Assembly (NCBI GenBank): GCA_964195975.1
Contig: CAXMQZ010000037.1
Coordinates: forward strand, 23,721 to 87,720
Origin: an uncultured Polyangiaceae bacterium
GTDB lineage: Bacteria; Acidobacteriota; Thermoanaerobaculia; Multivoradales; JAHEKO01
Direction: 5' to 3'
DNA: 64,000 nt
Each line of letters begins with the position of its first letter. Positions within the stretch are counted from its first letter, which is position 1. This document shows positions 5,978 to 63,203 of the stretch, in pieces. The position numbers and the translations under genes are program-made. Under the pieces are notes generated by a model. The model ran no database searches, was not told the DNA's origin, and was given only the letters and a program-made list of their open reading frames with translations.

Positions 5978-6632
5978 AACCAGCCGAGTTACGGCTGGCG
6001 GAGGCGAATTCTAGCGATTGAGGGATGGATGAGACGAATCGGGCCTCGCTCGACCTCCCGATCCTTGAATTCTAGCAGATCGATCGGGCAACGACACCCA
6101 AGCACCTCTCAATGGGAGTGCCAGGTTGCGCCAGCGGACTACGTCTAAGTATGCATGAGATGGGAAAAAACGGCTCTGGGGAAAGCCCAGAGGACGACCC
6201 AGGGTACGAAAAGAATCGAGCGGACTCGGATCTATCTGTCGCCGGTCTTCGTGGCAATCGCTCTATTTGGATTCGAATCGCAAAAGCCAGAAGAGGAGGT
6301 GTCGGTCGAGGAGCCGAGGCTCGTCATGGCAACGAGCAAAGGCCCATCCGAGCTTCTCAAACGCAAAATGCAGTGCTGGTACTGTCAATCTGAGGCGGTC
6401 CTATCGGAAATCAGGACTAGCTGGTCTGGTGTAGCCCTGGCGATTGGACAAGGAGGCAAGAATCGGATCGAGGAGCCTTGCCGCCGACTTCGAGCCGATG
6501 TCGATGCCTTGGTGGCTAGAGCACCTCCACCGGCACCCGATTCGATAACGCGGATTTACCTGTCGCGAGGTATCACACTGATTCGCAAGGCTACCGAGAA
6601 TTGTACGGAGAATCGGATCTTCGCGCTCTCGC
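5978..6632 (-). promoter_or_regulatory. Long intergenic region upstream of rne; candidate rne promoter and long structured 5' leader
   Basis: About 650 bp without a convincing gene between the rne start (5977) and rnd. In E. coli rne carries a long autoregulatory 5' UTR; conservation is not verifiable here. Confidence 0.3.
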
Positions 6633-45651: not shown

Positions 45652-46629
45652 CTACCTCGCCTCGAGGGCGTTGCGGTCACAAGTATACCAAGCATGGGTT
45701 CTGCCAAGACCTTCATTCAAATTCACCTGCGCCGTGAAATCCGTGGCCTTTTGTAGCTTCTTCGGGCTGCACACGAACCCCTCCGACAGGATCTCGCGAT
45801 ACTTCGATGGTGTCAGCAACGGGTTGAGACCGAGCTTCGCAGCGGGTACTCCAAGGGCCATGACCAACCAAAGAATGTTTCGAGGCACCCGAGTTGGCCG
45901 GTAGGTTTTATGGCAGGTCCGTGCCAGCACGCTTAGGAAGTCGTCGGCTGTGTGTGGCTCGTTGTGAGCGACAAAAAACACCTCCGACAGGGCCTGTGGG
46001 TGACAACCGACGATCTCGATAGCTCGAACCAGATCGCTGATGTAGAGGAATGAGAACGCCGAGTCAGGCTTGGCCAGCACCGGGAAGAAGCCACGCCAGG
46101 CGCAGCGGAAAAGAGAGAGAAAGTCCCGATCGCCGGGACCGTATACTGCGCTGGGTCGCAGGATCGTATAGGCGAGGCCGTCGATTCTGCGGACTGCCTG
46201 CTCACCGGCCAGCTTACTCTTGCCGTAGTCAGTTATCGGGTCAGGGATATCTGTTTCGGTCCGAGGCTTTTGTAGAGTTCCGGTGCCGGCAGCGGCCTGA
46301 CTCGATACATGGACGAGTCGAGCTCCGCTAGCCCGAGCCGCCAGCGCCACTTGTTCTGCTGCCCCCGCATTTGCGGGCAGATAGTCCTTCAAGCTCGGCG
46401 CACGGGTTTTCCCGGCTAGGTGAATCACCAGGTCGCAGCCATTGAAGGCCACGGTCAGCTCGTTGCGCTGCAGCGGGCTGACGACAGGCTCCGACTCTGC
46501 CGGAGGCGCTCTTGTGGTCTCGGGCCGCAGAATCGCGCGAACCTGCCAACCAGCTCTCGCCAGATGCAGAGAGAGGTGTCGCCCAATAAAGCCGGTCGAG
46601 CCCGTGACAGCAACTTTGCCTTCCATCAC
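45652..46629 (-). CDS. NAD-dependent epimerase/dehydratase-family (extended SDR) protein
   Basis: Rossmann motif VAVTGSTGFIGRHL. 325 aa with a YxxxK region. In this context it is a candidate 3-ketosphinganine-type reductase (inference). Confidence 0.8.
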   Translation of the reverse strand: MMEGKVAVTGSTGFIGRHLSLHLARAGWQVRAILRPETTRAPPAESEPVVSPLQRNELTVAFNGCDLVIHLAGKTRAPSLKDYLPANAGAAEQVALAARASGARLVHVSSQAAAGTGTLQKPRTETDIPDPITDYGKSKLAGEQAVRRIDGLAYTILRPSAVYGPGDRDFLSLFRCAWRGFFPVLAKPDSAFSFLYISDLVRAIEIVGCHPQALSEVFFVAHNEPHTADDFLSVLARTCHKTYRPTRVPRNILWLVMALGVPAAKLGLNPLLTPSKYREILSEGFVCSPKKLQKATDFTAQVNLNEGLGRTHAWYTCDRNALEAR

Positions 46630-46689
46630 AGCTGTTCTTGAAAGATCCGATAGGTTTTGTAGACAATGCCACCCGCGACCCTGATTTCG

Positions 46690-47913
46690 CTAGATGACAC
46701 CCAAGGACTTCCCGACGCGGTCGAAGGCGAACAGGATCTCTTCGATGTCGTCGTGGCTATGTCTGGCAGTAATGCTCGTCCGGACAATACACTCACCGTC
46801 GGGCACGCCTGGTGGTACTGCAGGCGACGTGAAGATCCCCTCGTCCCACAGCGCTTGCCAGAAGCGAAATGTCTTTGATTCCTCGCCTATCAGAACCGGC
46901 ACAATCGGGGTCTCGGAACCGAGGGTGTCGAAACCCAGTTCATGCATGCTTTTGCGGTAGAACTTGACATTCTGCTGTAGCTTTTCGCGTCGCCAGGTCT
47001 CTTTTTGAATTAATTCGAGGGCCTTGGTAGTGGCAGCGATCTGCATTCCGGGGAGCGCAGCCGTAAACATGAAGGGTCGCGCGACGCAGCGAACATAGCC
47101 CACGATATCGGTGTCTCCGCCGATAAACCCTCCTACCGAGCCGAATGCCTTGGAGAAGGTGCCCACGACGAGGTCTACACCCTGTTCCTGACCAAGATGC
47201 TCCGCAGTGCCACGACCTGCCTTGCCAAGGACTCCGGTTCCGTGTGCATCGTCGACTAGAAGGCCAGCATCGTACCGCTCGGCCAGCTCTACGAGTCGAT
47301 CCAACGGCGCGATGTGACCGCTCATGGAGAAGACACCATCGGTGACGATGAGCCGCCCACCGGGGCGATCGGAGTCCTTCTCGAGGAGGTGCGCGAGCTG
47401 GTCTATGTCGTTGTGTCGATATTTTCGGATCTTCGAGAATGAGAGTCTCGAGCCGTCGTAAAGACTGGCATGATTCTCACGATCAAAGTAGAGAATATCC
47501 TTTCGACCTCCGAGGGCGCTCAAGGCGCTCAGGCAGCCTTGAAATCCGGTGCTGAAGGTGAGAACACTCTCGACCTGAAGAAACTCGGCCAACTGTTCTT
47601 CTAGACGGTCATGCAACACCAGGGTTCCGGTGAGAAACCGTGAGCCGGTACAGCTCGTGCCATAGCGATCGAGAGCGCGGCGTGCGGCGGCCTTGACTCT
47701 CTCATCGCAAGCCAGGCCAAGATAGTCGTTGGAGCATGCAACAAGCTTCTCCTCTCCTTCGACCATCCATCGAACACCAGCATTGGTTTCGACTTGGCGA
47801 AAGTAGGGTTTGAAACCGGCCGCGGCAAGGTCTGCCAAGCGGACGTACTGCTGTGCTTTCTCGAACACGGCCTTGGGCCGTCTCGAGTCGTCGACTGTCT
47901 CAGGAATCACCAT
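46690..47913 (-). CDS. Alpha-oxoamine synthase family PLP enzyme, serine-palmitoyltransferase-like
   Basis: 407 aa. The PLP-lysine region GTFSKAFGSVGGFIGG is FSK...GGF as in SPT, unlike GTLGKA of BioF/Kbl. Confidence 0.7.
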   Translation of the reverse strand: MVIPETVDDSRRPKAVFEKAQQYVRLADLAAAGFKPYFRQVETNAGVRWMVEGEEKLVACSNDYLGLACDERVKAAARRALDRYGTSCTGSRFLTGTLVLHDRLEEQLAEFLQVESVLTFSTGFQGCLSALSALGGRKDILYFDRENHASLYDGSRLSFSKIRKYRHNDIDQLAHLLEKDSDRPGGRLIVTDGVFSMSGHIAPLDRLVELAERYDAGLLVDDAHGTGVLGKAGRGTAEHLGQEQGVDLVVGTFSKAFGSVGGFIGGDTDIVGYVRCVARPFMFTAALPGMQIAATTKALELIQKETWRREKLQQNVKFYRKSMHELGFDTLGSETPIVPVLIGEESKTFRFWQALWDEGIFTSPAVPPGVPDGECIVRTSITARHSHDDIEEILFAFDRVGKSLGVI

Positions 47914-47961
47914 TGGACACCACCCTTGTTCTATGTTTTCACTAATAAACGTCGGGAGAGA

Positions 47962-48585
47962 CTAGCTGTCAGCCTCCAGTGCGTCGATTCGATTCCTGAG
48001 ACGCTCGATGACAGTTTCTACCGACGAGACTCTCAACATTCTCGCAAATTGTTTTCGATAATTCTTAATCGTATCCACTCCATCCACAACGTAGTTGGTG
48101 ATCACCCAACTATCTTCGGATGGAATCAAATAGTAGTCGAGCTCAATGTCATCCTCACCATAGCGCGCGATCGTTCGCACAGTTGCTGTCTCGCCATCGA
48201 TATCCTCGCCTACGTACTCAAAACTATCGGCGCGATACCTTCCAAGTTTTCTTACCGACGAGACTCGAAGAAGCTCCCTGAAGACCTCTTTGAAGGTCTC
48301 GCAATCATCGCCAGCGGCAGGATCACAGAGACCGTCGATCGCCTCATTCGCAATGGTCGAAAAAGAGGTCATCTGATCCATAACATCGAAAACCTGTTCG
48401 TTCACGTCCGAGTCGGCTCTGCCGGAGTCTTTCGAATAGAGATCCAGGATCTCATCGTTCGACTCTCGAATTACCTGTAATGGTCCTTCTTGGGCAACAG
48501 CCGGAGAAATTGAGACCAACAGGAGAGTTACCGTGGCGGCATACCGCAACAGATCTACAATTTTAGCTGATTTCGACCGTTTCAT
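47962..48585 (-). CDS. Secreted hypothetical protein, possibly MlaC/Ttg2D-like lipid-binding periplasmic protein
   Basis: Signal peptide MKRSKSAKIVDLLRYAATVTLLLVSISPAVAQ. About 200 aa of mixed alpha/beta composition. Context only; no diagnostic motif. Confidence 0.35.
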   Translation of the reverse strand: MKRSKSAKIVDLLRYAATVTLLLVSISPAVAQEGPLQVIRESNDEILDLYSKDSGRADSDVNEQVFDVMDQMTSFSTIANEAIDGLCDPAAGDDCETFKEVFRELLRVSSVRKLGRYRADSFEYVGEDIDGETATVRTIARYGEDDIELDYYLIPSEDSWVITNYVVDGVDTIKNYRKQFARMLRVSSVETVIERLRNRIDALEADS

Positions 48586-49981
48586 GATCAATCCACTCCA
48601 GGTAGAGCTCAATGCGCCCCAATGTCAACGCTATGCGGGCCAGGGCGAGCTGATACTGAGCTTCTTGCTCGATGACTATCGCACCGAGCTCGTAGTATTG
48701 GCCGTAGGCGTCTACCAGCCGGTCGACGCTACCAAGACCGAGGTCCCAATTATCACCGCTTAGTCTCAGCCAGCGTTTTGCCGCCTTCTTGGATCTCTTG
48801 GCAGCATCGAGTAAATCTGAGAGAGCCTTTGCTTCCGCATAGGCTCGGGTGACCTCGATAATCAGTCGATCTTCGAGAACCGACAGTTGCTCGATGGCTT
48901 CCTGCCGCTCGACAGATGATTGGCTGATGGCCAGTCGGTGATCGGCAAACTTGAGGTTCCACCGAAGACCCAAGAAACCACCGATTGTCCGCAGGTTGAA
49001 TGGATCCAGAATGAAAGGATTTCTGATATCGGTTCGGTTTGGAGCGCGAGCGTAGGCCCCACCCAAAGCGAGAAAGATGTCGGGCCACCTGGACGCCTCG
49101 GCTAGCGCCAATTTACTATCGAGTGCGCCGAGGCCGGCACGGGCTTGTTGGATCGGCGGACTCGAATCCATTGCCATTGTGATTAGTGAGTCCAACATGT
49201 CCTCGTCTGGTAGCCCCGGTGTCCCCGCAGGAGCGAAGCTATCCGAATCGAGCTTGCCCCAGTCGAGCAGGACCTCCAACGATGCACCCGCAATCTCCTG
49301 ATTCTTGACACTCTGTCTGCCCGCGGCTCTAATCCCGTACTCGAAGCTCTGCACTTCGAATAGGCGTGTGTCATCTACGTCGGAGTCGGGGTCATTCGCA
49401 GCTCGCTCGACCTCCTCGAGCAATCTCTCGTAGTCCTTTTGCAAATCCTCGGCCAGATTGACACCACGATTTGCCGATTCAAACCCCCAAAACGCCTGCA
49501 CGACTTGGAATCCGAGCTTCGCAGCTGTGAAATCTCTACCGAACTCCCGTACGAGAACACCCTGCTCGGCCGCGGCTCGAGCGGAGGCGATCTTTCCAAA
49601 AGTCGTAAGCGGCTGGGCGATCCTAAGGTCGAATCGATAAAATACCCCCAGATTGTTGAGGTCTTCGTTGGAGTCCGGTGACTCGAAGATGTTTCCTTTT
49701 GCTTGCGGGACCAAACCCGTCTTGAAGTCGAGATCGATACTGGGTAGTTTTGTGTTCTTGACTTCCTTGACGTCGAGCTCGGCACGCTGCACTTTGTAGC
49801 GCTCGGCCTGAACGACTGGATGGGTCGCAAGGGCGTGTTCGACGGCTTCGCGTAGGGTATGGCGTGCGGAGTCGTCAACCGCGTCGGTCGTCTGGCTGTG
49901 GGTCACTTCGGGGATTAAAAGGCACAAGAACAGTACTGTCCACGGTAGCGACCGCGGGCTGTTTGACAATGAATTGTGCAC
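48563..49981 (-). CDS. TolC-family outer-membrane efflux channel
   Basis: 472 aa. Signal peptide plus an internally duplicated helical/beta structure. The N-terminal ...LREAVEHALATHPVVQAERYKVQRAELDVKEVK is the typical OEP start. Confidence 0.75.
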   Translation of the reverse strand: MHNSLSNSPRSLPWTVLFLCLLIPEVTHSQTTDAVDDSARHTLREAVEHALATHPVVQAERYKVQRAELDVKEVKNTKLPSIDLDFKTGLVPQAKGNIFESPDSNEDLNNLGVFYRFDLRIAQPLTTFGKIASARAAAEQGVLVREFGRDFTAAKLGFQVVQAFWGFESANRGVNLAEDLQKDYERLLEEVERAANDPDSDVDDTRLFEVQSFEYGIRAAGRQSVKNQEIAGASLEVLLDWGKLDSDSFAPAGTPGLPDEDMLDSLITMAMDSSPPIQQARAGLGALDSKLALAEASRWPDIFLALGGAYARAPNRTDIRNPFILDPFNLRTIGGFLGLRWNLKFADHRLAISQSSVERQEAIEQLSVLEDRLIIEVTRAYAEAKALSDLLDAAKRSKKAAKRWLRLSGDNWDLGLGSVDRLVDAYGQYYELGAIVIEQEAQYQLALARIALTLGRIELYLEWIDHETVEIS

Positions 49982-50080
49982 TCTTAGGACGGACCCTGGA
50001 CTTAGTTCAACACTTGGAGTCGAGCGGGGTGGCTCAGATCTTCTACGAGCGGGACGGCGTTCCAGCTTCGCGCGATCGGA

Positions 50081-50764
50081 TCACCGTGTGGTCCGTACTC
50101 TTCGTTCCCTGGAGATACGGGTTCCAAACGCCATGTCCCAGATGACGCTGCTGACACCGAACCCGCGGTCGGGATCATGGTAATGGTGCACCACATGGTG
50201 TTCTTGGAGACGCTTCCAGATAGGGTGGCGAAGCGGCGCATGATAAACGGCGTAATGGATCATGTCGTAGGCTAGATAGCCGACCAGAAACCCGGCTGAT
50301 GCAGCATAAAAGACACCACCATTTCCGAGGGTCAGCCGAAATAGCAGGTAGAAAGGAATCACCAGAATCACTGCCAGGAGCGGTGGCATCACAAGCCGTT
50401 TCTGATCGTTTGGGTAGTCGTGGTGAATACCGTGTAGCAGGAAGTGCCACCTTTTCCCCAGATCGCTCGAGGGTTCGTAGTGAAATACGAACCGGTGAAG
50501 CAAGTATTCGGACAAGGTCCAAAAGAAGACGCCACCCGTAAAGAAGAGAAGCAGCTGCGCGGGCTGGTTGCCTGAAAATTGTGCGGCTTTATACAGACAA
50601 AAGCCGACTATCGGAACCCAAAAAATCAGAGGGTAGGACCAGTGGACGTATGACTGAGCGTCGAGCGTTGGGTTTTTGAAGAGTCGGATCGACTCCTTCG
50701 CGTTTGAAACATACATTTTGGACACTTGGATCTCACCTCCGCGGAGACCGGCGCATCCCTCCAC
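50081..50764 (-). CDS. Fatty-acid hydroxylase superfamily (sterol desaturase/FA2H-like di-iron membrane enzyme)
   Basis: Four His boxes: HRFVFHY, HGIHHDYP, HYAVYH, HHVVHHYH. Confidence 0.8.
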   Translation of the reverse strand: MEGCAGLRGGEIQVSKMYVSNAKESIRLFKNPTLDAQSYVHWSYPLIFWVPIVGFCLYKAAQFSGNQPAQLLLFFTGGVFFWTLSEYLLHRFVFHYEPSSDLGKRWHFLLHGIHHDYPNDQKRLVMPPLLAVILVIPFYLLFRLTLGNGGVFYAASAGFLVGYLAYDMIHYAVYHAPLRHPIWKRLQEHHVVHHYHDPDRGFGVSSVIWDMAFGTRISRERRVRTTR

Positions 50765-50841
50765 AAACGCGCCCTACTTTGCCGTCTTATGCCTGGACAA
50801 AACGGCTGACAACGTCGAAGTATACTGTACTCGATGAGAGG

Positions 50842-51813
50842 CGAACCGTGTTAGAGATCCTGACCCGGCTCAAAGCGGACCTGCAGCGTGTAGGGAAGCC
50901 TCGAGAGGTTGAAGGTGTTCTGGATCGCTTTCTCATCCGACCTTGCGGGTATGTAATAGCGCGATGGCTGACGCCGAGTTGGGTAAGCCCCAATTTTCTG
51001 TCGTTGTTGGCCTTAGCCTTCGGATGGCTCACCGCTTACTGTCTCTTTGAAACGGCCAGATTGGGAAACCTTCCCGTCTACTCCGGGCTTGCCGCTCTGT
51101 CGATGGTACTTCACTCTGCTTTCGACAGCGCCGACGGTCAGCTGGCCCGTGCTAGAGGGACGACCAGTGAGTTTGGCCGCATACTCGATGGGATATGTGA
51201 CTATCTCAGTTTTGCAGCTATCTATCTGGCTATCGGTCTCGGTCTGGGAGTCAGAGCAGGAACGGGAATGACTCCCTTCGTTCTTTCAGCGGTGGCGGCG
51301 GGTCTATCGCATGGCCTTCAGTGCGCTGTGGTCGAGAATCAACGCAATCTGTACCGACACTACGTACATGGCGCCGAGCTTCCCTTCGACGCTTCAGAGC
51401 CCGAACCAGGTGCGCAGATCGAGAGCGAGTTGGGCTTCCTACAACTCATACACGGGGCCTACTCCAAGCTTCAGATGGTTTTTGGGGGCTCGAGTCTTCG
51501 CTTGTGGCGCAAGGTCGACGGCTGGCAGCAGAGCCATTCTAGCGACTCGGATCGAATCGTTGGCCTGATAGTTGCTAATAACTTGAAGCGATTGCCTTTG
51601 TGGGCCCTGCTGGCGCCAAATTCTCACAAAGTAGGGATGATCGTCGGAGCTTTTATTCCAGTAGGAAGCAGTACGGTTTTCGGAGAACTGGGTCTGTTTT
51701 GGTACTTTCTCTATGTCGTTGTAGGTCTGAATCTACTGATGATCGTAATGATTTTCACCCAATCATTGGTAGATCGCCGAACCTGGGTTGCGCTAATGGA
51801 AGATTCCCACTGA
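50842..51813 (+). CDS. CDP-alcohol phosphatidyltransferase family protein; start uncertain (ORF opens at 50704, overlapping the hydroxylase; GTG near 50842 with GAGAGG upstream)
   Basis: Signature D-x2-DG-x2-AR-x8-G-x3-D-x3-D as DSADGQLARARGTTSEFGRILDGICD. Confidence 0.75.
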   Translation, partial: RTVLEILTRLKADLQRVGKPREVEGVLDRFLIRPCGYVIARWLTPSWVSPNFLSLLALAFGWLTAYCLFETARLGNLPVYSGLAALSMVLHSAFDSADGQLARARGTTSEFGRILDGICDYLSFAAIYLAIGLGLGVRAGTGMTPFVLSAVAAGLSHGLQCAVVENQRNLYRHYVHGAELPFDASEPEPGAQIESELGFLQLIHGAYSKLQMVFGGSSLRLWRKVDGWQQSHSSDSDRIVGLIVANNLKRLPLWALLAPNSHKVGMIVGAFIPVGSSTVFGELGLFWYFLYVVVGLNLLMIVMIFTQSLVDRRTWVALMEDSH

Positions 51814-51814
51814 A

Positions 51815-53152
51815 GTGCTCGGGCGCGATGGCTCGACTAGCCGGAACAAGTCTCGGACGATGAGATCAATCGTCACTGTTACAACTCCCCGTGCCTTCGA
51901 CGAGCTCGGCGGACTCATGTTGTGGCAACGTGTGATCAGGACTCTGGGACATCTAGGCTCAGAGTCGGTTCAACTGATCATCGTTCCCGAATTGTCTGAG
52001 TTGGGATTGAAAGAGAGTGTGTGGCAAGAGTCGTATCTCGATGATGGCGATATCCAGGCCGTTGCGGGGAAGTCTCTGACTTCGGTCGATCTCCTCGAGA
52101 TGGCCGGGGAGGGCGAGGGGCCGATTCTTGTCGTGCCCGGAGAATCCGTTTTTGACCCGCGGATCCTCGAATTCTGTTTGAACCAGACCGCTCCGGTTGC
52201 CTGCGTCGACCGAGATCCGCCGGCAGAGTGGCGAGCACTGGTGGAAAACGCCCCACGGGTCGGCGATGCTCGATTCTGTGGTCCCGTGGTAGTAACAGAT
52301 GAATGGCTGAATCGGTATCCAGGGGACTTTCCTGACGCTGTCGCAAAGACTATTGCGCATGGATCACTGCCGACAGTTGACGTCGACTCCTTGCCGACAA
52401 GAGCAGGGAATCTACGACGAGATGTCAGACCCTTTTGGTTCCCAGCGCCAGATTCCAAAGACAGAAGCTTGGCAAGGCGTCTGCTGTTGTCTTCGACTCA
52501 GAAGGGCTCACTCGACCTTCCTGCAATGGTTCATGCTCCGATTGAGAAGCTCGTGGCCTGGAGCCTGGCGGGGACCAAGATCACTCCCAACATGGTCACT
52601 GTTCTGACTACTCTGGTTGCCTGGGTTGCCACCGTCATGTTTATCCGGGGCCATCTTGTCACCGGTCTCGTACTTGCTCTGATGGTTGGAGTATTGGATG
52701 GTGTTGACGGCAAACTGGCGCGTCTACGATTCGAGTTCTCCAGATTCGGCGAGCTCGAGCACTGGCTGGATTTTCTGTACGAATGGTCGTGGTGGGTCGC
52801 GCTGGCCTACTACTTCTCGAGCTCTGGTCTGCTCCCACAAGCCTGGCGCGTTCTTGGACTGCTAGCCTTCTTCGAAGTTGTCGATGGCTTGGCCAAGGCG
52901 ATCAGTATTGTCTCGTTTGGGCGTCTCATCGACGAAATATCTCCGTTTGAAAGGATGGTGCGAATCTTTGGTGGTAGGCGTAACGTATATATTTGGCTCA
53001 TGGTTCTCGGAACGGTCTTGGGAAAGCCTGCAGCGGCCTTTGAGATTTTGCCAATCTGGCAGGGAGCTACCGCGATTCTTCACTGGATAAGACTCCCCTG
53101 GCTTTTTGCCAATTCTCGTAAAGAGCAGCGGATAGGTGGAATCACCGGATGA
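51815..53152 (+). CDS. Two-domain protein: N-terminal ~230-aa soluble domain (possibly degenerate nucleotidyltransferase-like) fused to a CDP-alcohol phosphatidyltransferase membrane domain
   Basis: C-terminal domain has LDGVDGKLARLRFEFSRFGELEHWLD (CDP-OH_P_transf-like). The N-terminal domain lacks a clear GxGTR motif. Confidence 0.6.
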   Translation: MLGRDGSTSRNKSRTMRSIVTVTTPRAFDELGGLMLWQRVIRTLGHLGSESVQLIIVPELSELGLKESVWQESYLDDGDIQAVAGKSLTSVDLLEMAGEGEGPILVVPGESVFDPRILEFCLNQTAPVACVDRDPPAEWRALVENAPRVGDARFCGPVVVTDEWLNRYPGDFPDAVAKTIAHGSLPTVDVDSLPTRAGNLRRDVRPFWFPAPDSKDRSLARRLLLSSTQKGSLDLPAMVHAPIEKLVAWSLAGTKITPNMVTVLTTLVAWVATVMFIRGHLVTGLVLALMVGVLDGVDGKLARLRFEFSRFGELEHWLDFLYEWSWWVALAYYFSSSGLLPQAWRVLGLLAFFEVVDGLAKAISIVSFGRLIDEISPFERMVRIFGGRRNVYIWLMVLGTVLGKPAAAFEILPIWQGATAILHWIRLPWLFANSRKEQRIGGITG

Positions 53153-55563
53153 TGGACCGGTTGTGGCGGATTGTCTCGCGGGTCTCAGCAGAACATACCT
53201 GGTGGGTGCTGGGCATGACCCTGTTGGTCAGTATTCCTGCCTTCTTGTCGGTAAAGAATATCGGGCTCGACACCAACCTGAAGCGACTTCTTCCTGAGCA
53301 TGCGCCGTCGGTCCGGTGGAGCCGCGAGCTCGAGGAGTCGGTCGGAGACGGGGGGTACTTCGCGATCCTAATAGAGGGAGATGATCGTCAAGTATTGATC
53401 ACTACGATCGAAGAAATAGCCGACAGGGTAGGGGATCTCCCCTCGATTCAATCAGTTGATTATCGAAACCCCAAAGAGTTTGTCGACGAGTATCGCTACA
53501 CCCTGCTACCCAACTCACTTCTCGAGGAGCTCAGAGACGAGATCGAGCGGTGGGAGATCGAAGTCAATCCGTTTCTACTCGACCTGGATGCCCCCGAGAC
53601 CTCCGATACCCAAGCTGATGACGACGAGGAGGATGCCGATCGCTTGGAGAAATTCCTGACTCACTACGTGCATATGGACGAATATCAGGCCGACTCGGAG
53701 GGTCGTATTTTTGGCATGATCATTAGACCCAAGGAAGGTATCTCGAATCTAGCCAGCCTGAGAGAGCTGTACGGTGAGCTTCAGAGGATCACTGCCGAAT
53801 CGGTCGAGGGGAAGGGGTTGTGGTGGGGCATCGGAGGTAATCTTCGTACGCGGGTCGACGAGTTCGATCTGATCGTCTCGGATCTAGGAAGGGCCGGATG
53901 GGTCTCGGCAATAGCGATTCTGCTGACTTTGGCGATCAGCTTTCGGTCCTTCAAAGTCCTGCCAGTTATCCTCTACCCTTTGGCGATGGGTCTTCTGTGG
54001 TCGTTCTGCTTTGTCCCGACTTTGGTGGGAGATCTGAATACTATTACCGCGTTTCTCTTGTTGGTGTTGTTTGGCATGGGCGTGGACTATGCAATCCACC
54101 TCGTGAGCCGATTTGAGGTCGAATTGACCTCGCGGTCTCCCGAAGAGGCGCTAGAGGAGACCCTTCGATCGACAGGTAGATCGGTAGCGACCTCCGGTGC
54201 GACTACGGCCATAGCTCTACTGATTCTGTCGGTGTCCGATTTTAGGGGTTTTTCGGACTTTGGCATCATCGGCGGAACCTCGATCGGAGTCATCACATTG
54301 GCAATGCTTTTTGTATGGCCGGCCTGTGCCGTCGCCGGCGTCAAGCTCGGACTCGTCTCGGCGGGAAAGCCCTCGACCGAGGGATGGGCTCTACCGCTCC
54401 CAGGGCCTATCGTAATAGTTGGGGTGTTAACGCTTGTTGGCCTATCGATATTCGCCGCTCGGGAGTACCTTCAGTTCGACTACGACTTCACCAAATTAAG
54501 CGCCACTATCCCGGGCAAGGAAGAGATCAACGAGAAACAGAGAAAGGTCTATCCTGCCACCTCTGCACCTGCGGCTCTCTATGTAGCCAGAGACCTCGAA
54601 GCTCTCGATCAGATTATGGCTTTGCTGGAGAAAAAGCGCGACGAAGCAGCCGATTCCCCGACTATTGGCACGATCAACAGCATCAGAAATTTCGCTCCGA
54701 GCCGTTCGCAGTTCGACCGTCGACTCGAGACTATCGCCGAGATGCGGGATTCACTCCAAGGTCGGTGGGTAAGAAAGATCGACGATCCTGATCGAAAGGA
54801 GATCATTGAAGACTTTCTGGCATTCGAGCCACCGAACAACCCCCCACGCATCGACGAGGTTCCAGTATCGATCAGCCGAGAGCTGATGGCTCGCGATGGC
54901 TCTGGAGCGTTGGTGACCGTCGACACCGATGGGCGCAGTCGGGATGGCAGGATGGCCATGGCGTTTACCAGGGACCTTTATGAGATCGACCTTCCTGAGG
55001 GCGTGCGGGGACCCACAGGTGAAAAACTCGTACTTGCGGAGATACTTTTCCTGGTCACCGGCGAGAGTGCCTGGATTGTGGCTCTCACTTTTGGAGGGAT
55101 TTTTATCCTGGTCCTCCTGGATCGGAGATCGGTCATCCAGACAGTCTGGGTCTTGGTGCCGCTGGCGGCTGGCATTCTTCTGACTCTGGGAGCCATGGTA
55201 GTACTCGGCTGGAAGCTGAATTTCTTCAATCTGGTCGTACTGCCAACGATGTTAGGAGTTGGGGTGGATCATGGTGTGCACTACTACCGGCGATGGCGGG
55301 AGGTCGACGGCGACACCCGTTCGACCCACTACGAGTTGTTTGGACCCATCACGATCGCGTCGGTAACCACGATGATGGGTTATCTCGGCATGGTGCTCGC
55401 ACACCACCCAGGCTTGCGCTCGATCGGACTGCTCGCGCTTGTCGGATTGACGGCTACCTGGTTTACAGCTCTGGTGCTGCTACCGGGTCTTCTTTGCTGG
55501 CAGAGGGGTTGTATGCCAGGTCTTCTTCGATTGCAGAAGAGTCCTAGGACTGAAAGTTCGTAA
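53149..55563 (+). CDS. MMPL/RND-superfamily exporter (HpnN/MmpL-like lipid transporter)
   Basis: 804 aa with two 6-TM bundles, each preceded by a large periplasmic domain. 4-nt overlap with the upstream gene. Confidence 0.8.
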   Translation: MMDRLWRIVSRVSAEHTWWVLGMTLLVSIPAFLSVKNIGLDTNLKRLLPEHAPSVRWSRELEESVGDGGYFAILIEGDDRQVLITTIEEIADRVGDLPSIQSVDYRNPKEFVDEYRYTLLPNSLLEELRDEIERWEIEVNPFLLDLDAPETSDTQADDDEEDADRLEKFLTHYVHMDEYQADSEGRIFGMIIRPKEGISNLASLRELYGELQRITAESVEGKGLWWGIGGNLRTRVDEFDLIVSDLGRAGWVSAIAILLTLAISFRSFKVLPVILYPLAMGLLWSFCFVPTLVGDLNTITAFLLLVLFGMGVDYAIHLVSRFEVELTSRSPEEALEETLRSTGRSVATSGATTAIALLILSVSDFRGFSDFGIIGGTSIGVITLAMLFVWPACAVAGVKLGLVSAGKPSTEGWALPLPGPIVIVGVLTLVGLSIFAAREYLQFDYDFTKLSATIPGKEEINEKQRKVYPATSAPAALYVARDLEALDQIMALLEKKRDEAADSPTIGTINSIRNFAPSRSQFDRRLETIAEMRDSLQGRWVRKIDDPDRKEIIEDFLAFEPPNNPPRIDEVPVSISRELMARDGSGALVTVDTDGRSRDGRMAMAFTRDLYEIDLPEGVRGPTGEKLVLAEILFLVTGESAWIVALTFGGIFILVLLDRRSVIQTVWVLVPLAAGILLTLGAMVVLGWKLNFFNLVVLPTMLGVGVDHGVHYYRRWREVDGDTRSTHYELFGPITIASVTTMMGYLGMVLAHHPGLRSIGLLALVGLTATWFTALVLLPGLLCWQRGCMPGLLRLQKSPRTESS

Positions 55564-55603
55564 CGAGATTCTCTGTTCGGGACGGGGACCTGGCACAGTT
55601 CGA

Positions 55604-56554
55604 CTATTCGGATTCTTGCCGTCGAAAGGAATCCGTAGCTGATGCCCTCCGCACGCACGAGATCGTGCACCGGTCTTCGCAGCCCTTTCGAGTATAGAAC
55701 TCTCTCAGGCGATGATCTTTGGTGTACTCGCTCAACGGGATACCAGGATCATTTCGTCGCTGACTGCAGTATGAGACGATCCCGTCCTCATCTACATAGA
55801 GATACCGGGCGCCAGCGCGGCATTTCCAGGGAGCCGAACCGTCTCTAATGATCTTCGACTCCCAGCCTTCACCAACGTGGTGGAGAAGGCTCTTACGGCT
55901 TCGCCCATGAATCTCTTGATAGAAATCCGCCAGACTGTCGCCGAGAAGACCGGGGTCGAGTTGGCCCTCCTGGTCATGCATCAGGCCGACGGTCATATAA
56001 AAGCCCATTTCTTGAACACCCTGCACGACCTCACGTGTTTCCTCGAGGTTGCTGGATCCGAGCACGGCGTTGACGGTCACCTTGAACTTGGCATGATCGC
56101 GCAGCAGGGCCAGACGCTCCTTTAGACTCGACCAGGATTTTTCGGAAACTTCGTTGGGCTCCAGGTTGTCGATTGAGACCTGTAGGATCGTGAGCCCGGA
56201 GTCGTTGAGTCGCTCGATCCAGCGTGAAGTCAAGGTGTATCCGTTCGTGATCGACGTACAAACCATCCCGCGCGATACTGCGTAGCGGATCAATTCGTCC
56301 AACATTGGATGGAGAAGAGGCTCACCGCCCGTCAGGGTCAATACAACTGTGCCTGCATCGGCAATTTGATCGATGCGCTCGATCAAGTCTCTGGTGTCGA
56401 CTGGCGGAGAAACGTGGTCAAACTCGTTACAGTACCCGCAGGCAAGATTGCAGCGACGGGTGACAACTAGTTGGACAAGGACAGGTTTTGAAGGCGAAAG
56501 TATTGCCGCGCCCGCTCGGGCCAGGGAGCGAATAGGTGGGTTGGGTAGAAGCAT
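55604..56554 (-). CDS. Radical SAM enzyme with C-terminal Cys-rich (twitch/SPASM-like) region, function unknown
   Basis: CNLACGYC (CxxxCxxC) and GGEPLL. C-terminal cysteines ...WKCRAGARY...SYCSQ...KGCEDRCTISC. Confidence 0.75.
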   Translation of the reverse strand: MLLPNPPIRSLARAGAAILSPSKPVLVQLVVTRRCNLACGYCNEFDHVSPPVDTRDLIERIDQIADAGTVVLTLTGGEPLLHPMLDELIRYAVSRGMVCTSITNGYTLTSRWIERLNDSGLTILQVSIDNLEPNEVSEKSWSSLKERLALLRDHAKFKVTVNAVLGSSNLEETREVVQGVQEMGFYMTVGLMHDQEGQLDPGLLGDSLADFYQEIHGRSRKSLLHHVGEGWESKIIRDGSAPWKCRAGARYLYVDEDGIVSYCSQRRNDPGIPLSEYTKDHRLREFYTRKGCEDRCTISCVRRASATDSFRRQESE

Positions 56555-56569
56555 CGGTGGTAGGTCTGG

Positions 56570-57343
56570 CTAGTCTGAGGTCGATCGAACGGATAGCTCG
56601 GTCAACAGATCGCGGGCGTCGGATGTTGCCAGGCGAAGATCGTCCGGTGTGTCGATATCGATCCACATGCGTGGTCCAGGGAGAGTCGCAGCCAGGACCA
56701 ATCCCTTGGAAGCGCAGTGCCGAACACCGTCGGAGAGTGAGAACCGGGAATTTGCCTGTGCGGTCTCGAGACCCTCTGCAAGAGTTTTGGTGCAATAGAA
56801 AAGCCCGGAATCACCGGCATCCCACGACGTAAGCTCTTTACCGATGGCGACTACGTGACCGGCTTCGGTTTGTACTTTTGTCAGATCATCGAGATCGACG
56901 ATCGATCCCGGAAAGGGATCCACGGCCAGAGTGATCTTGTCTGCGTCCATGTCAAAATCGATCAGGTACCTGATCATCTGGGGAGAGAACAAGTGGTCAG
57001 CCATAGAAAGTAGGAACGGTCGCGGCGAGAAGGATCGAGCGAGGGCCAAAGCCGTGACACCGTTTCCCTTCTCCCAACCCTGGACGGTCACGAACTCGAT
57101 ATCGATCCCAAGTCGTTCAGCAATATCCAAGTAGTTATTACGCACCATGTCGGCTTTGAACCCGAGCCCGACTCGGAACTCGCGCACTCCGGCGGCGTAG
57201 AATGCATTCAGACTCCACTCCGCAATGGTTGCCCCATGAAGTGGCATGCATGGCTTCGGTAGTTTCTCGTCCACTCCTCGCAGCCGGGTGCCTTCACCGG
57301 CAGCGAGAATGGAGACGGGTAGGGGTAGAGCAGTCTCCATCAC
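56570..57343 (-). CDS. Nucleotidyltransferase (sugar/alcohol-phosphate cytidylyl-/guanylyltransferase fold); candidate CTP:inositol-1-phosphate cytidylyltransferase
   Basis: ILAAGEGTRL (GxGTRL) motif near the N-terminus. 257 aa. Adjacent to inositol-3-phosphate synthase. Confidence 0.65.
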   Translation of the reverse strand: MMETALPLPVSILAAGEGTRLRGVDEKLPKPCMPLHGATIAEWSLNAFYAAGVREFRVGLGFKADMVRNNYLDIAERLGIDIEFVTVQGWEKGNGVTALALARSFSPRPFLLSMADHLFSPQMIRYLIDFDMDADKITLAVDPFPGSIVDLDDLTKVQTEAGHVVAIGKELTSWDAGDSGLFYCTKTLAEGLETAQANSRFSLSDGVRHCASKGLVLAATLPGPRMWIDIDTPDDLRLATSDARDLLTELSVRSTSD

Positions 57344-57445
57344 GCGATTACCTGCCCTTCCAGCTTTTCGCTGGTGGTGGCTTGGGCCTTCGGCGATTCA
57401 AAATCGGTCTCGCCTATTAGCCCGCGCGGTCGTGAATCATGCGCG

Positions 57446-58591
57446 CTAGGACTCTTTGACGTCTACGAGAGGTGTGGCCTGCACTGCTGTTTCGATGACA
57501 TCATCCGCCAGAAAATCCTCCAGAGCTCGTTTTGCTTCAGAGTCTGAGATTTGCTGGGGCGGATGCTTCATCGTGTAAGCAGACGCTGCGATGAGAGGAC
57601 CCGATATCCCTCTGTCCAGAGCCACCTTGGCGCAGCGGATAGCGTCGACTACCACACCCGCTGAGTTAGGTGAGTCTTCGACACTGAGCCTGGCCTCCAA
57701 GTGCATTGGAACGCCGCCAAATCCTCTTCCCTCGACCCGGATAAAACAGACTTTGTTGTCCTTTTGCCAGGGAACATAGTCCGATGGGCCGATGTGGATT
57801 TGATCGTCGGGGAGCCGGATTGCAAGCTCCGCCTGAACCGACTCGGTCTTGGATTCCTTCTTGCTTCGCAACCGAGTCCTCTCGAGCATATTGAGGAAGT
57901 CGGTGTTGCCGCCGGTGTTGAGCTGATAGGTACGATCGATCCGCACTCCTCGATCTCCCATCATCTTCGCCAGGGTACGATGCATGATAGTCGCACCGAA
58001 CTGGCTCTTGATGTCATCACCAACGATTGGAATACCCTTTTCGCTAAACCGGGCGGCGTACTCTGGATCCGAGGCGATAAAGACCGGAACACAGTTGACC
58101 ATGGCAACGCCGGCCTCCAGACATGCTTCGGCATAGGCCCGAACGGCCTGCTCTGAGCCCACCGGCAAATACGAGATGAGAACCTCGGCGCCTGACTCCT
58201 TCAGGGCTTTGGCTACATCTACGGGTTCGGCATCTGCCACCCGAAAGGCCTGGTTCTCCGGATAGTTCGCCATGTGGTCTGCGACGCCATCCAAGACTGG
58301 GCCCATCTGGACCATGATTTCCTGCGAATTGACGGATGGCTCGAAGACCGTCGTGCAATTCGGCTCAGCGAATACGGCTTGATTGATGGATCGACCAACC
58401 TTTCTTCGATCAACATCGAAGGCAGCAACAGGTCGAATACTCCCGACGCTGTAGGAACCAATTACTTCACGCATCAGTCCGATCGGTTCTTCGTTGTTGT
58501 TCTTTTTGTAGTGGTCGATTCCCTGCAGGAGGGCGCTAGCGCAGTTTCCAACACCAGCGACTGCAATACGTACGTCGTTCTTCATCTTCAA
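57446..58591 (-). CDS. ino1: myo-Inositol-1-phosphate (inositol-3-phosphate) synthase, archaeal/bacterial type
   Basis: NAD-binding IAVAGVGNCASALLQG, ...NGSPQNTF-like core ...YQLNTGGNTDFLNML.... 381 aa. Confidence 0.85.
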   Translation of the reverse strand: MKMKNDVRIAVAGVGNCASALLQGIDHYKKNNNEEPIGLMREVIGSYSVGSIRPVAAFDVDRRKVGRSINQAVFAEPNCTTVFEPSVNSQEIMVQMGPVLDGVADHMANYPENQAFRVADAEPVDVAKALKESGAEVLISYLPVGSEQAVRAYAEACLEAGVAMVNCVPVFIASDPEYAARFSEKGIPIVGDDIKSQFGATIMHRTLAKMMGDRGVRIDRTYQLNTGGNTDFLNMLERTRLRSKKESKTESVQAELAIRLPDDQIHIGPSDYVPWQKDNKVCFIRVEGRGFGGVPMHLEARLSVEDSPNSAGVVVDAIRCAKVALDRGISGPLIAASAYTMKHPPQQISDSEAKRALEDFLADDVIETAVQATPLVDVKES

Positions 58592-58741: not shown

Positions 58742-61729
58742 CTAGAACTTGGGCTTCAATATGATTCCTTCGCCATGGCGTCCATCGAGAGCGATCGTCA
58801 GCGGCGAATTCAGCCTTAGATGTTTGAGGTGAGTCGTCTCGGTTTCTGCTTGGCACTCATCGAGCCAGCTCCAGTCGAGAAACTGACCGTTTTTTTCACT
58901 AGATTCTTCCGCACCTGGTGGCAAAGTGAGGTATCCGATCCTTAAGGACGAAATGTTTTGAAAGAAATGAGTTCCCTGAGACGGCTCGACATCGTATCCC
59001 TCTGGTGATGCTTCTACGATTGCGCCGACATTTGAGATCTGTCCCCACTGTACCGGAATTCCGAGCCATGGATCTGCTGTCCCCCAGCGTCCGGGACCAA
59101 TCAGCAAATAACGACGGTTTTCGGTTTCGAGCATCTTGTTGATATGGCCTACTTGCGCCGCGATGTCCTTGTTCTGTGCAGCTTCCCAGTTTTCGCGTCG
59201 GACATAGACGATATCCTCGATCTCGTCCTCGATCCCATGCCCTAGGCTCGAGTGTGAAACACAGAGCTCCTGACCTGGGTCATAGGACAGCTGCGCGATC
59301 TCCTTTTCGGCAGACCGGCTTACAAAGGGTCGTACCTGCAGAAGATAGAGTACGGGGCGCTTCCTGGGGTGGCCCGGAAGCACAGGTTTGCCCCAATCAC
59401 CCATGTCGCAAGCGAACTCGATCTCGACTGGAGATCCTAGTCCCAGTTGCGAGATCATGAGGAGGTGCTCGAGAGCGTCCGCCAATGGGATTGCCCCGTG
59501 GCGCAGGATGTTGTTGAAGGTGACGACTCGGGGCCCAGAGTGCTGCAGGTCGTCACGGATGGTCTGATCTTCGGGGCTGTACACGCTTCCAACAACCTGG
59601 AGAGTCCCGTCATCTTCAGCCTGGGCCAGGTCGTGGAACTTGATGTTGGCATAAGGATCGGTCAGCGGTAGACAACAAGTCGAATCAACATCGAGGGCGT
59701 AGAACCCCCGTTGGGTGGTGTCGAGAAACGTCTTTGAAGTGGCGTCCTGAGCCAGAACTCGTGGATATCTAGGGCTGAACCGCAAGGCAAGTCCACCGTC
59801 GACAACCAACCGACCGAGCCCCAGTCCGACATGGGCTACACCATCTTCCGGACTCTGAGGCCCTATGGGGTAGAAATTGTGAGACTGTGCGACGCCGGCG
59901 AAATGCGGATAGAAAAGAGAACCATGCTGCTGGCCGACAAGACGCTGGACAATGACGGCCATTTTCTCTTCCTCGAGCCGGTGACCCGTGCTGGCCAGAT
60001 ACGCATTGGCGTTGCCATAAAACGTCGATGCGTAGACGAGCTTGATTGCACTGCAAAGCTCAGCCAAGCGCTGCTCCGGATCTCGGCTCTGATTTGGGAT
60101 CATTACGGTTGTGTAGATCCCCGCGAGCGGCTGATGCATCGAGTCTTCGAGAAGGCTTGATGACCGTATCGCAAGCGGCCCACCCATGTGGTGGGCCACA
60201 TAAGTGAGATCGTTTCTCAGGTCATCGTCGAGTCGACCTGCAACAAACCGCTTAGCGATCTCAAGATCATCATCGCTCGCGTAGGCGAATTCCCTGAGGT
60301 TGTTGTTCTCGACGAATTCATCGAAGAATTCAGTGGTGATGATTACGCTTTTGGGTATGTGTATTTCGAGACCCTCGATCTCTGCAGAGCCGCTTTTGGC
60401 GAGGGTCATGTTCAGAAACGCGAGTCCGCGAGCCTTGCCGCCGATCGAGCCTTGGCCGATTCTCGAGATGATGTCGCGATCGAACTCTTTCCGGTTGAAG
60501 TCCGCGATGACTCGTCGGTAGGTGCTGTGGTAGGACTCTTTGAGCGCGTTGGTCAGATACTTACGCAAATCCTCGGTTGAGCCGAACTCGGACGCCTGAC
60601 GTGGCCTCAGACGTTCGGCCAGTTCGAATTCACTACGGGCCATCAGCCAAATTGAGAAATGATTGTGGGCAGCGTGATACTTGAGACACTCCTCTGGAAC
60701 GACCGCCAGATGGCGTTCCAAGTCACGGACATCCTTGGCGCGAGCAATCTCCTCGCTGCCATCCGATGAACGGAAGACAAAATCGCCAAATCCGAGGTTA
60801 CTCCTGAAGAAACTGCGGATGTCGGCTAGCAGGCTCTCGGAATTCTTGTCGACAAAGATAGCGCCGAGCTCCTTTGCTCGGGCGGCATTGCTCTTCTCGG
60901 CTGACTGGAGCAGGATGGGTAGATCCCGATCATGCTCTCGCGTAAAGCGGGCGAAATCGAGACCCCCGACAGGGTCGAGTTTTCCCTCGCGCGGAATTCG
61001 AATATCGCTTACGATGCCCAGAATATTTCGACGGTAGCGTTTGAACAGTTGTACACCCTGCTCATACGAAGTGGCGTGAAGAATCTTTGGACGCGATCGC
61101 ATGTACATTCGACGATGAAGCTCGTTGACACCTTCGGCGTAGAGCGAGTGAGACTGAGCCATCAACTCCTTGTACAGCATCCCCAGAAGAGCGGAGTAGT
61201 ACCTGGGCGAGTCTTCCAGAACCAGAATGACCCGGACATGACCATGTTGAATATCGTGATCGACGTTTTGTCGATCTTCAAAATACTTGATGATTGCCAC
61301 CAAGATCTGGGAGTCTCCAGACCACAGAAAGACTCCATCGACAGCGTCTCGATCGAGAGCACTGTGTGCCAGGTCGAGCTCGCGACGGTCGAGTGCCAAC
61401 AACACGACGGGTCGCCCCGGGCGGAGCTCCTTGATCTTGCGGGCAAGTGCATTGACCCCCATGTCGATCACACTCGTCATAACCAGAATCAGATCGAACC
61501 TCTGGTCATCGAGCCTTTTCAAGGCTTGCTCACCCGAGGGCACGTGGGTCACCCGAGGAGGGCCGGACAGGCTTACATCGCGATACTCGAAGAAGACCTG
61601 TTCTGTGAGTTGCCCGTCTTCCTCGAGAATAAAGGCATCGTACGGCGAAGACACGAGCAGCACCTCACGCACTCGAAAGGGCATGAGGTCGTGAAACCGG
61701 CGGTGTTGAAAAGTGCGTTGTAGCGGCAT
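58742..61729 (-). CDS. Multidomain protein: pseudo-receiver + receiver (REC) + PEP-synthase/PPDK-type N-terminal ATP-grasp (PPDK_N) domain + degenerate swivel-like C-terminal region
   Basis: REC2: ILVLEDS...IVSDIRIP...PILLQSAE. PPDK_N: GGKARGLAFL, AIRSSSLLEDS, MAVIVQRLV, GVAHVGLGLG. The C-terminal LLIGPGRWGTADPWLGIPVQWG resembles the PEP-utilising mobile domain but lacks the His. Confidence 0.65.
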   Translation of the reverse strand: MPLQRTFQHRRFHDLMPFRVREVLLVSSPYDAFILEEDGQLTEQVFFEYRDVSLSGPPRVTHVPSGEQALKRLDDQRFDLILVMTSVIDMGVNALARKIKELRPGRPVVLLALDRRELDLAHSALDRDAVDGVFLWSGDSQILVAIIKYFEDRQNVDHDIQHGHVRVILVLEDSPRYYSALLGMLYKELMAQSHSLYAEGVNELHRRMYMRSRPKILHATSYEQGVQLFKRYRRNILGIVSDIRIPREGKLDPVGGLDFARFTREHDRDLPILLQSAEKSNAARAKELGAIFVDKNSESLLADIRSFFRSNLGFGDFVFRSSDGSEEIARAKDVRDLERHLAVVPEECLKYHAAHNHFSIWLMARSEFELAERLRPRQASEFGSTEDLRKYLTNALKESYHSTYRRVIADFNRKEFDRDIISRIGQGSIGGKARGLAFLNMTLAKSGSAEIEGLEIHIPKSVIITTEFFDEFVENNNLREFAYASDDDLEIAKRFVAGRLDDDLRNDLTYVAHHMGGPLAIRSSSLLEDSMHQPLAGIYTTVMIPNQSRDPEQRLAELCSAIKLVYASTFYGNANAYLASTGHRLEEEKMAVIVQRLVGQQHGSLFYPHFAGVAQSHNFYPIGPQSPEDGVAHVGLGLGRLVVDGGLALRFSPRYPRVLAQDATSKTFLDTTQRGFYALDVDSTCCLPLTDPYANIKFHDLAQAEDDGTLQVVGSVYSPEDQTIRDDLQHSGPRVVTFNNILRHGAIPLADALEHLLMISQLGLGSPVEIEFACDMGDWGKPVLPGHPRKRPVLYLLQVRPFVSRSAEKEIAQLSYDPGQELCVSHSSLGHGIEDEIEDIVYVRRENWEAAQNKDIAAQVGHINKMLETENRRYLLIGPGRWGTADPWLGIPVQWGQISNVGAIVEASPEGYDVEPSQGTHFFQNISSLRIGYLTLPPGAEESSEKNGQFLDWSWLDECQAETETTHLKHLRLNSPLTIALDGRHGEGIILKPKF

Positions 61730-61736
61730 CCAGAGC

Positions 61737-63203
<1,467 letters not shown>

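Follow-up and report, generated by a model that had tools for sequence, protein, structure and literature searches.

A receiver-linked PPDK_N ATP-grasp protein family with an invariant tail histidine and a recurrent glutamate dehydrogenase neighbour

The window analysed here is a 64,000-nucleotide stretch of DNA from an uncultured Polyangiaceae bacterium (GenBank assembly GCA_964195975.1, contig CAXMQZ010000037.1, positions 23,721 to 87,720 of the forward strand). Its minus strand carries a gene for a 995-amino-acid (aa) protein that belongs to a real, widespread and uncharacterised family. On balance, we lean toward a model in which this protein is a receiver-gated His-carrier phosphotransferase of the PPDK/phosphoenolpyruvate (PEP) synthase type that has lost the usual TIM-barrel substrate domain and acts at the glutamate dehydrogenase (GDH) node. 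The new elements reported here are a hidden true receiver domain (REC2), a DUF5752-type module, a His-bearing swivel-like tail, and a conserved partnership with gdhA. The features on which the argument relies are as follows, in window coordinates.

58742..61729, minus strand: the whole open reading frame (ORF), 995 aa plus stop, from the ORF list, with full-length homologues of 54-99% identity
61250..61675, minus strand: REC1, an aspartate-less pseudo-receiver (aa ~19-160), from Pfam Response_reg, the AF2 model and Foldseek matches to PleD
60800..61240, minus strand: REC2, a divergent but complete receiver (aa ~164-310), from conservation and tandem-REC structural matches
60515..60793, minus strand: the mid domain (aa 313-405), a beta-hairpin and helical bundle with a GFGDFVF motif and an invariant W361
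59324..60469, minus strand: the PPDK_N ATP-grasp domain (aa ~421-802), from Pfam PPDK_N, with K432, R522-S-S-S, E528-D529, E769/E771 and Q798-x-R800
58745..59272, minus strand: the tail (aa 820-995), a predicted divergent swivelling beta/beta/alpha domain with a GPGRWG loop (878-883), E906 and S917-x-G-[S/T]-H921-F (H921 codon 58967-58969)
61737..63077, minus strand: gdhA, coding for an NADP-specific GdhA of 446 aa, from Pfam ELFV_dehydrog and NCBIfam NF006929 (752 bits versus a cutoff of 536)

The modules of the protein are arranged in the order REC1, REC2, DUF5752-like domain, PPDK_N ATP-grasp domain and swivel-like tail. An earlier sequence-only reading of the window had proposed a pseudo-receiver, a receiver, a PEP-synthase-type ATP-grasp domain and a swivel-like tail, and this order holds, with the addition of the DUF5752-type module that it missed between REC2 and the ATP-grasp domain. 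An AF2 model made from 58 homologues (pLDDT 84, pTM 0.78) shows all five modules as two receiver-type domains, a beta-hairpin plus helical domain, an ATP-grasp domain and a mixed alpha/beta tail. Foldseek searches with the whole model return HpeI (9goj), PPDK (1kbl) and PleD-type REC-REC regulators. Ranked first is HpeI, a stand-alone ATP-grasp subunit from an enzyme of the PEP-synthase type; the substrate of this enzyme is presumably a small molecule.

Among the Pfam profiles named by the sequence-only reading, PF01326 is matched, PF00072 is just passed by REC1 and not reached by REC2, and PF00391 is absent. Partial NCBIfam matches to PEP synthase, PigC/RedH and rifampin phosphotransferase are confined to aa ~450-605, and the equivalog scan gives scores far below the cutoffs for Rph (18.4 bits versus 999), PEP_synth (27.5 versus 740) and PigC (48.3 versus 1300). 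Thus, the orthology to Rph or PEP synthase paralogues that this reading had considered as evidence against itself was not found. Conservation was assessed with a close-homologue alignment of the query plus 120 sequences and with a divergent alignment of the query plus 103 full-length representatives at 31-56% identity (n = 104).

The ATP-grasp domain is the most readily recognised part of the protein, and its earlier assignment as a PPDK_N/PEP-synthase nucleotide-binding domain is confirmed by Pfam (PPDK_N, aa 428-810, E = 2e-35, 123 bits). K432 of the GGK motif, R522-S-S-S, E528-D529, E771 and Q798 are retained in 103-104 of the 104 divergent sequences, while R800 is present in 102 and is replaced by Lys in the other two. 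By BLASTP, these motifs are in register with residues 24-236 of E. coli PpsA. The conserved residues are those of the nucleotide partial reaction in PPDK enzymology. Because both this site and H921 of the tail are invariant, conservation argues for real catalysis, in which a phosphoryl group would pass from ATP to the histidine and then to an acceptor.

The sequence-only reading considered the tail to be His-less and the protein a possible pseudo-dikinase. The segment on which it relied, LLIGPGRWGTADPWLGIPV, indeed lacks histidine, but an invariant His921 is located 30 residues beyond it, at the N-terminus of a helix in a predicted swivel-type fold. A conserved tail histidine was one of the two findings that this reading had named as evidence against itself. 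Of the 104 divergent full-length proteins, 102 have the S917-x-G-[S/T]-H921-F motif, and G-[S/T]-H921 is kept in 261 of 262 tail copies, including those of stand-alone and tandem modules. A tail-only model (pLDDT 89, pTM 0.88) has a strand at 901-907, a loop, H921 at the start of helix 920-928 and then a strand at 932-936. This order of strand, T-S-H helix and strand is the one seen in phospho-His swivel domains. For the tail, swivel chains occupy rank 2 (the extra domain of Bacillus pyruvate kinase), rank 3 (maize PPDK), ranks 5 and 28 (Enzyme I), rank 7 (rifampin phosphotransferase) and rank 15 (EI-Ntr). From structure and conservation, and with moderate confidence, we read the tail as a swivel-type domain of high divergence, with H921 as its probable phosphocarrier.

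An alternative register, in which LLIGPGRWGTADPWLGIPV is aligned with the swivel motif GGRTSHAAIIARELGIP, was rejected. The LGIPV/LGIPA match covers 7 residues with an HH probability of 1.2%, and the position of the histidine falls on R881, which AF2 places in a loop rather than a helix. This loop carries the GPGRWG motif (59081-59098), whose three Gly residues and R881 are invariant in the 262 tail copies and whose W882 is present in 259. The motif has no counterpart in known swivel domains; it might form a phosphate or His~P cradle, or a docking surface.

The genetic context of the family provides its link to GDH. In the window, the gdhA stop codon lies 7 nucleotides before the ATG of the gene for the 995-aa protein, on its upstream side. 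The longest GDH ORF (61737-63188) begins with a GTG at 63188 and would code for 483 aa. Its 37 N-terminal residues are probably not translated, because homologues have 446 aa, matching the ATG at 63077 (MPQSID...). We examined 83 homologous loci, counting GDH genes by tblastn at 50% or greater identity to the GDH of the window, and found one in 37 of them. In 26 loci the GDH gene is within 400 nucleotides, as an upstream gene on the same strand (11), a downstream gene on the same strand (10), or in convergent (3) or divergent (2) orientation. When the count is limited to the 50 loci whose flanks reach 3 kb or more on each side, GDH is present in 25 and directly adjacent in 19. Unbiased clustering of neighbouring ORFs from the 83 loci likewise identifies GDH as the single broadly recurrent partner, with 35 loci compared to 8 for the next family.

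Adjacency to GDH is observed in Acidobacteriota, Myxococcota, Desulfobacterota, Bacteroidota, Ignavibacteria, Fibrobacterota, Eisenbacteria and Krumholzibacteriia, and extends to the cultured species Gillisia limnaea (DSM 15749), where the family gene adjoins gdhA. For a gene that is present once or twice per genome, we estimate that the chance of such adjacency is well under 1%. Genes for FabD, FolE, QueD, SodA and 2-oxoacid:ferredoxin oxidoreductase were rejected as partners; they are confined to one Bacteroidales group and were read as lineage synteny. The alpha and beta genes of the oxidoreductase are located 3-6 kb upstream in seven loci (L021, L034, L037, L041, L047, L056 and L074), and an alpha gene is also found in L003. 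They may represent an additional connection with the 2-oxoglutarate node, or simply lineage synteny.

Both receiver domains have the expected fold according to AF2 secondary structure and to Foldseek, which returns PleD, FixJ, CheY and others with a probability of 1.0; PleD-type REC-REC proteins are the best structural matches for aa 1-310. REC1 passes the Pfam Response_reg cutoff marginally (aa 57-133, 30.9 bits versus 30.2). In the query it carries VLLVSS, with S27/S28 in place of the acidic pair and M84 in place of the phosphorylated Asp, and divergent members have S/A-S/T and M/T/F/V at these positions. Thus, REC1 fits the definition of an aspartate-less receiver, a domain of receiver fold in which another residue takes the place of the phospho-Asp. 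At the start of REC1, LLVSSPYDAFILEEDG (61610-61663, aa 23-40) is among the best-conserved stretches of the protein, and residues 30-41 are modelled with pLDDT below 50.

REC2 scores below the Pfam cutoff (17.6 bits in the query, 23.8 or less in relatives) because of an insert after beta1/alpha1. When this insert is deleted in silico, REC2 aligns to profile positions 1-93 of 111 with E = 5e-5. Its acceptor set consists of E172-D173, D242 (IVSDIRIP; codon 61004-61006), S276 and K295, and each acceptor residue is kept in 85-96% of divergent members (for example D242 in 95, S/T276 in 98 and K295 in 95 of 104). Therefore, the earlier proposal of two CheY-like domains, the first without an acidic pocket and the second with the IVSDIRIP aspartate, stands by fold and by residues, although only REC1 passes Pfam. 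An invariant R213-P214-K215 (61085-61093) lies within the REC2 insert. No histidine kinase recurs among the neighbouring ORFs of the 83 loci, and the protein is an orphan regulator whose kinase is possibly encoded elsewhere.

The mid domain between REC2 and the ATP-grasp domain matches DUF5752 (PF19027) when scanned alone (28 bits versus a cutoff of 23), as do 22 of 32 diverse members, with the match spanning only profile positions 19-106 of 208. In the full-length scan the match (aa 330-404, 20.8 bits) is below threshold. A profile search for free-standing relatives of this domain recovered one fragment only, and we found no literature on DUF5752.

These observations can be assembled into a mechanism. 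ATP would be bound by the ATP-grasp domain and used to phosphorylate His921 on the mobile, swivel-like tail. The phosphorylated histidine would then hand its phosphoryl group to an acceptor for which the protein has no recognisable domain. This acceptor might therefore be bound by the DUF5752-type domain or act in trans, and on the strength of the GDH linkage the foremost candidate is GdhA or a metabolite of the reaction that it catalyses. Phosphorylation of Asp242 in REC2 by a kinase encoded elsewhere would switch the enzyme on or off, probably by way of two adaptor or docking modules, the Asp-less REC1 and the DUF5752-type domain. The predicted site of action is the GDH node of nitrogen assimilation, where the likeliest target would be GdhA itself or a metabolite or cofactor of the GdhA reaction.

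A more specific version of this model proposes a signal-gated GDH kinase, in which the swivel histidine, charged by the PPDK-like ATP-grasp domain, directly phosphorylates and controls NADP-GdhA. We regard this version as rather unlikely. If true, it would constitute a post-translational, two-component-driven switch for ammonium assimilation in Bacteroidota, Acidobacteriota, Myxococcota, Desulfobacterota and other phyla. GDH in Bacteroides has reportedly, in old work, been seen to undergo reversible inactivation in vivo, and a GDH kinase might explain such an effect.

Several results dampen our enthusiasm for a His-carrier phosphotransferase acting at the GDH node. GDH is not found in the sequenced flanks of about half of the loci, many Bacteroidales included, and gene adjacency cannot separate direct action on GDH from co-regulation. 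Pfam and NCBIfam scans reveal no acceptor-substrate domain, such as a PEP-utilizers_C TIM barrel or a rifampin-binding domain, and the protein ends with the tail. For 25 tails there is no Pfam match to PF00391 at E of 10 or less, and hmmsearch with a tail profile against PDB sequences gives no significant match. Comparison of the tail with six genuine swivel sequences by hhalign, including local runs with the 262-sequence tail alignment, yields probabilities of 0.6-1.2%, and a Foldseek search of the tail against the PDB recovers no swivel folds. The proposed equivalence of His921 to the catalytic histidine is inferred from the order of secondary-structure elements.

The genomic results among these would be expected if the protein were a receiver-regulated small-molecule dikinase unrelated to GDH, with gdhA adjacency reflecting shared transcriptional control that responds, for example, to nitrogen or energy. 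The DUF5752-type domain could be a ligand pocket for such an enzyme. Moreover, small molecules or glucans are, to our knowledge, the substrates of all characterised PPDK_N/swivel enzymes except PTS Enzyme I, and the top structural match, HpeI, presumably also belongs to a small-molecule enzyme. We nevertheless consider this explanation unlikely. The adjacency to GDH survives at least four rearrangements across many phyla and no other enzyme recurs, which is a pattern typical of direct functional coupling.

The tail results, together with the missing acceptor domain and the degenerate REC1, are also compatible with a catalytically silent scaffold or sensor, whose ATP-grasp domain senses energy state, whose tail is purely structural, and whose partners are regulated allosterically. 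This possibility appears quite unlikely, because the residues of the nucleotide reaction, His921 and the GPGRWG loop are invariant at about 31-56% identity, a conservation stricter than binding alone requires.

The distribution of the family bears on the role of REC2. Two tail motifs locate members in at least 598 species-representative genomes, and those listed include Acidobacteriota, Myxococcota, Desulfobacterota, Bacteroidota, Ignavibacteria, Chlorobiota, Calditrichota, Fibrobacterota, Spirochaetota and Eisenbacteria. The Bacteroidota members include Gillisia limnaea DSM 15749, Prevotella, Alloprevotella and Parabacteroides, and extend to gut and oral Bacteroidales. An exhaustive HMMER search seeded with aa 320-995 retrieves, at E of 1e-30 or less, 898 proteins that each represent a 50%-identity cluster, most of which are about 1000 aa in length with the same layout, and all five modules are present in every one of the 83 loci with a long enough contig. 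Databases name these proteins only as "PEP/pyruvate-binding domain-containing protein" or "hypothetical". Members of ~550-880 aa were rejected as receiver-less variants, being mostly 5'-truncated gene calls. A few genuine stand-alone genes of ~585 aa carry only the ATP-grasp domain and tail, such as P0230 (L086 6001-7758) and P0267 (L085 3599-5344). These two are complete genes without a receiver, a DUF5752 domain or a nearby GDH gene, indicating that the module is self-contained. Three larger proteins of 1523-1654 aa (P0149, P0153 and P0183) have two tandem copies of the ATP-grasp domain and His-bearing tail and no receivers, and P0183 has an additional C-terminal Pol-beta-type nucleotidyltransferase domain. 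Further PpsA-like (PPDK_N) coding regions are located a few kb away in four loci (L031 ~5751-6404, L044 ~5783-6436, L038 ~2998-3789 and L012 ~13073-13555).

These variants are relevant to the idea of a self-contained phosphorelay, in which phosphorylated His921 would transfer its phosphoryl group to the REC2 residue Asp242 within one protein or dimer, and phosphorylated REC2 would contact GDH or another partner. His-to-Asp transfer is chemically standard, Enzyme I and HPr offer a precedent for transfer from a swivel histidine to a protein, and the conserved REC2 acceptor set, the lack of a recurrent cognate kinase gene and the lack of any other acceptor domain are all in keeping with this idea. 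We find it very unlikely. Such a relay would leave REC2 with no output domain downstream of it, and D242 and/or K295 are lost in 14 of 103 representatives that keep all ATP-grasp and tail invariants. In addition, the stand-alone and tandem proteins keep the histidine with no receiver, fused or adjacent. The last two observations favour a role of REC2 as a regulatory input over one as the phosphoryl acceptor.

On the other side of the gene, an inositol-3-phosphate synthase gene of the same strand begins 150 nucleotides downstream, and the interval contains no recognisable terminator. Scans of the junctions for promoters and terminators yielded as many matches as chance would give. The inositol genes are within a lipid-type cluster (window 45652-58591) that includes the following genes.

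45652-46629: NAD-dependent epimerase/reductase
46690-47913: SPT-like class I/II aminotransferase
50081-50764: fatty-acid hydroxylase
50704-51813 and 51815-53152: two CDP-alcohol phosphatidyltransferases
53149-55563: MMPL transporter
55604-56554: radical SAM protein
56570-57343: IPCT-like cytidylyltransferase (NTP-transferase)
57446-58591: inositol-3-phosphate synthase

This cluster may encode an inositol-(sphingo)lipid pathway, and the genome that carries it is Acidobacteriota-like. The sequence-only reading placed the gene directly upstream of an inositol-phosphate operon, which is correct as to position, and suggested that a His-less pseudo-dikinase or response-regulator-controlled dikinase might regulate, or phosphorylate, an intermediate, but this role is hardly credible and is already largely refuted by the neighbourhood data, since inositol-phosphate synthase, NTP-transferase and radical-SAM genes are nearby in none of the 83 homologous loci, the recurrent partner is NADP-GDH, and the tail carries His921.

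The architecture had been called unrecognised, which the literature does not support. A fusion of REC with PPDK is listed, uncharacterised, in two censuses of response regulators (Maule et al. 2015, PMC4395418; Galperin et al. 2018, PMC5847659), where the proteins are described as Bacteroides-like, and the first of these includes PPDK among the effectors enriched with aspartate-less receivers (PMC4395418). The census proteins are very probably of the same family as the 995-aa protein. The aspartate-less label fits, because Pfam sees only the Asp-less REC1, and the censuses probably filed the family in this way because Pfam misses REC2. As far as the consulted portions of these sources extend, they describe the architecture at the Pfam level only, without REC2, the DUF5752-type domain, the His-bearing swivel-like tail or the linkage to gdhA (PMC4395418, PMC5847659). 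The companion claim that no protein with this arrangement has been characterised stands, as our literature searches for a characterised member or for a connection with GDH turned up only the two censuses.

If the proposed mechanism is true, the family joins two-component input to dikinase chemistry without the usual substrate barrel. Its conserved link with gdhA hints at a layer of control, so far undescribed, over the 2-oxoglutarate/glutamate branch point in phyla whose regulation of nitrogen assimilation is poorly understood, and the family can be tested in cultured Bacteroidota.

The closest known systems are PPDK and PpsA, in which a PPDK_N ATP-grasp domain is followed by a PEP-utilizers swivel domain with the catalytic histidine and by a PEP-utilizers_C TIM barrel. 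The 995-aa protein shares their nucleotide-site motifs in register (GGK, RSS..ED, E-x-E and Q-x-R-P) and appears to share the succession of an ATP-grasp domain and a swivelling beta/beta/alpha domain with G-[S/T]-H at a helix N-terminus. It differs in having no C-terminal PEP/pyruvate TIM barrel, in the addition of an N-terminal REC-REC-DUF5752 region, and in a tail that PF00391 does not see and that has a long inserted helix and longer loops. The substrate-swapped dikinases Rph, PigC/RedH, HpeI and glucan water dikinase have no receiver fusion, whereas the 995-aa protein has no known acceptor domain. As in PleD-type regulators, one phosphorylatable receiver and one pseudo-receiver precede an enzymatic output, but the pseudo-receiver comes first, the output is of the dikinase type rather than GGDEF, and REC2 has an insert with the invariant RPK. 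Two other systems offer functional analogies only. In PTS Enzyme I, a swivel His~P can phosphorylate a protein (HPr), although Enzyme I uses PEP and a TIM barrel where the 995-aa protein has ATP and an ATP-grasp domain. AceK, whose fold is unrelated, is a kinase that controls the branch-point enzyme isocitrate dehydrogenase from the same operon.

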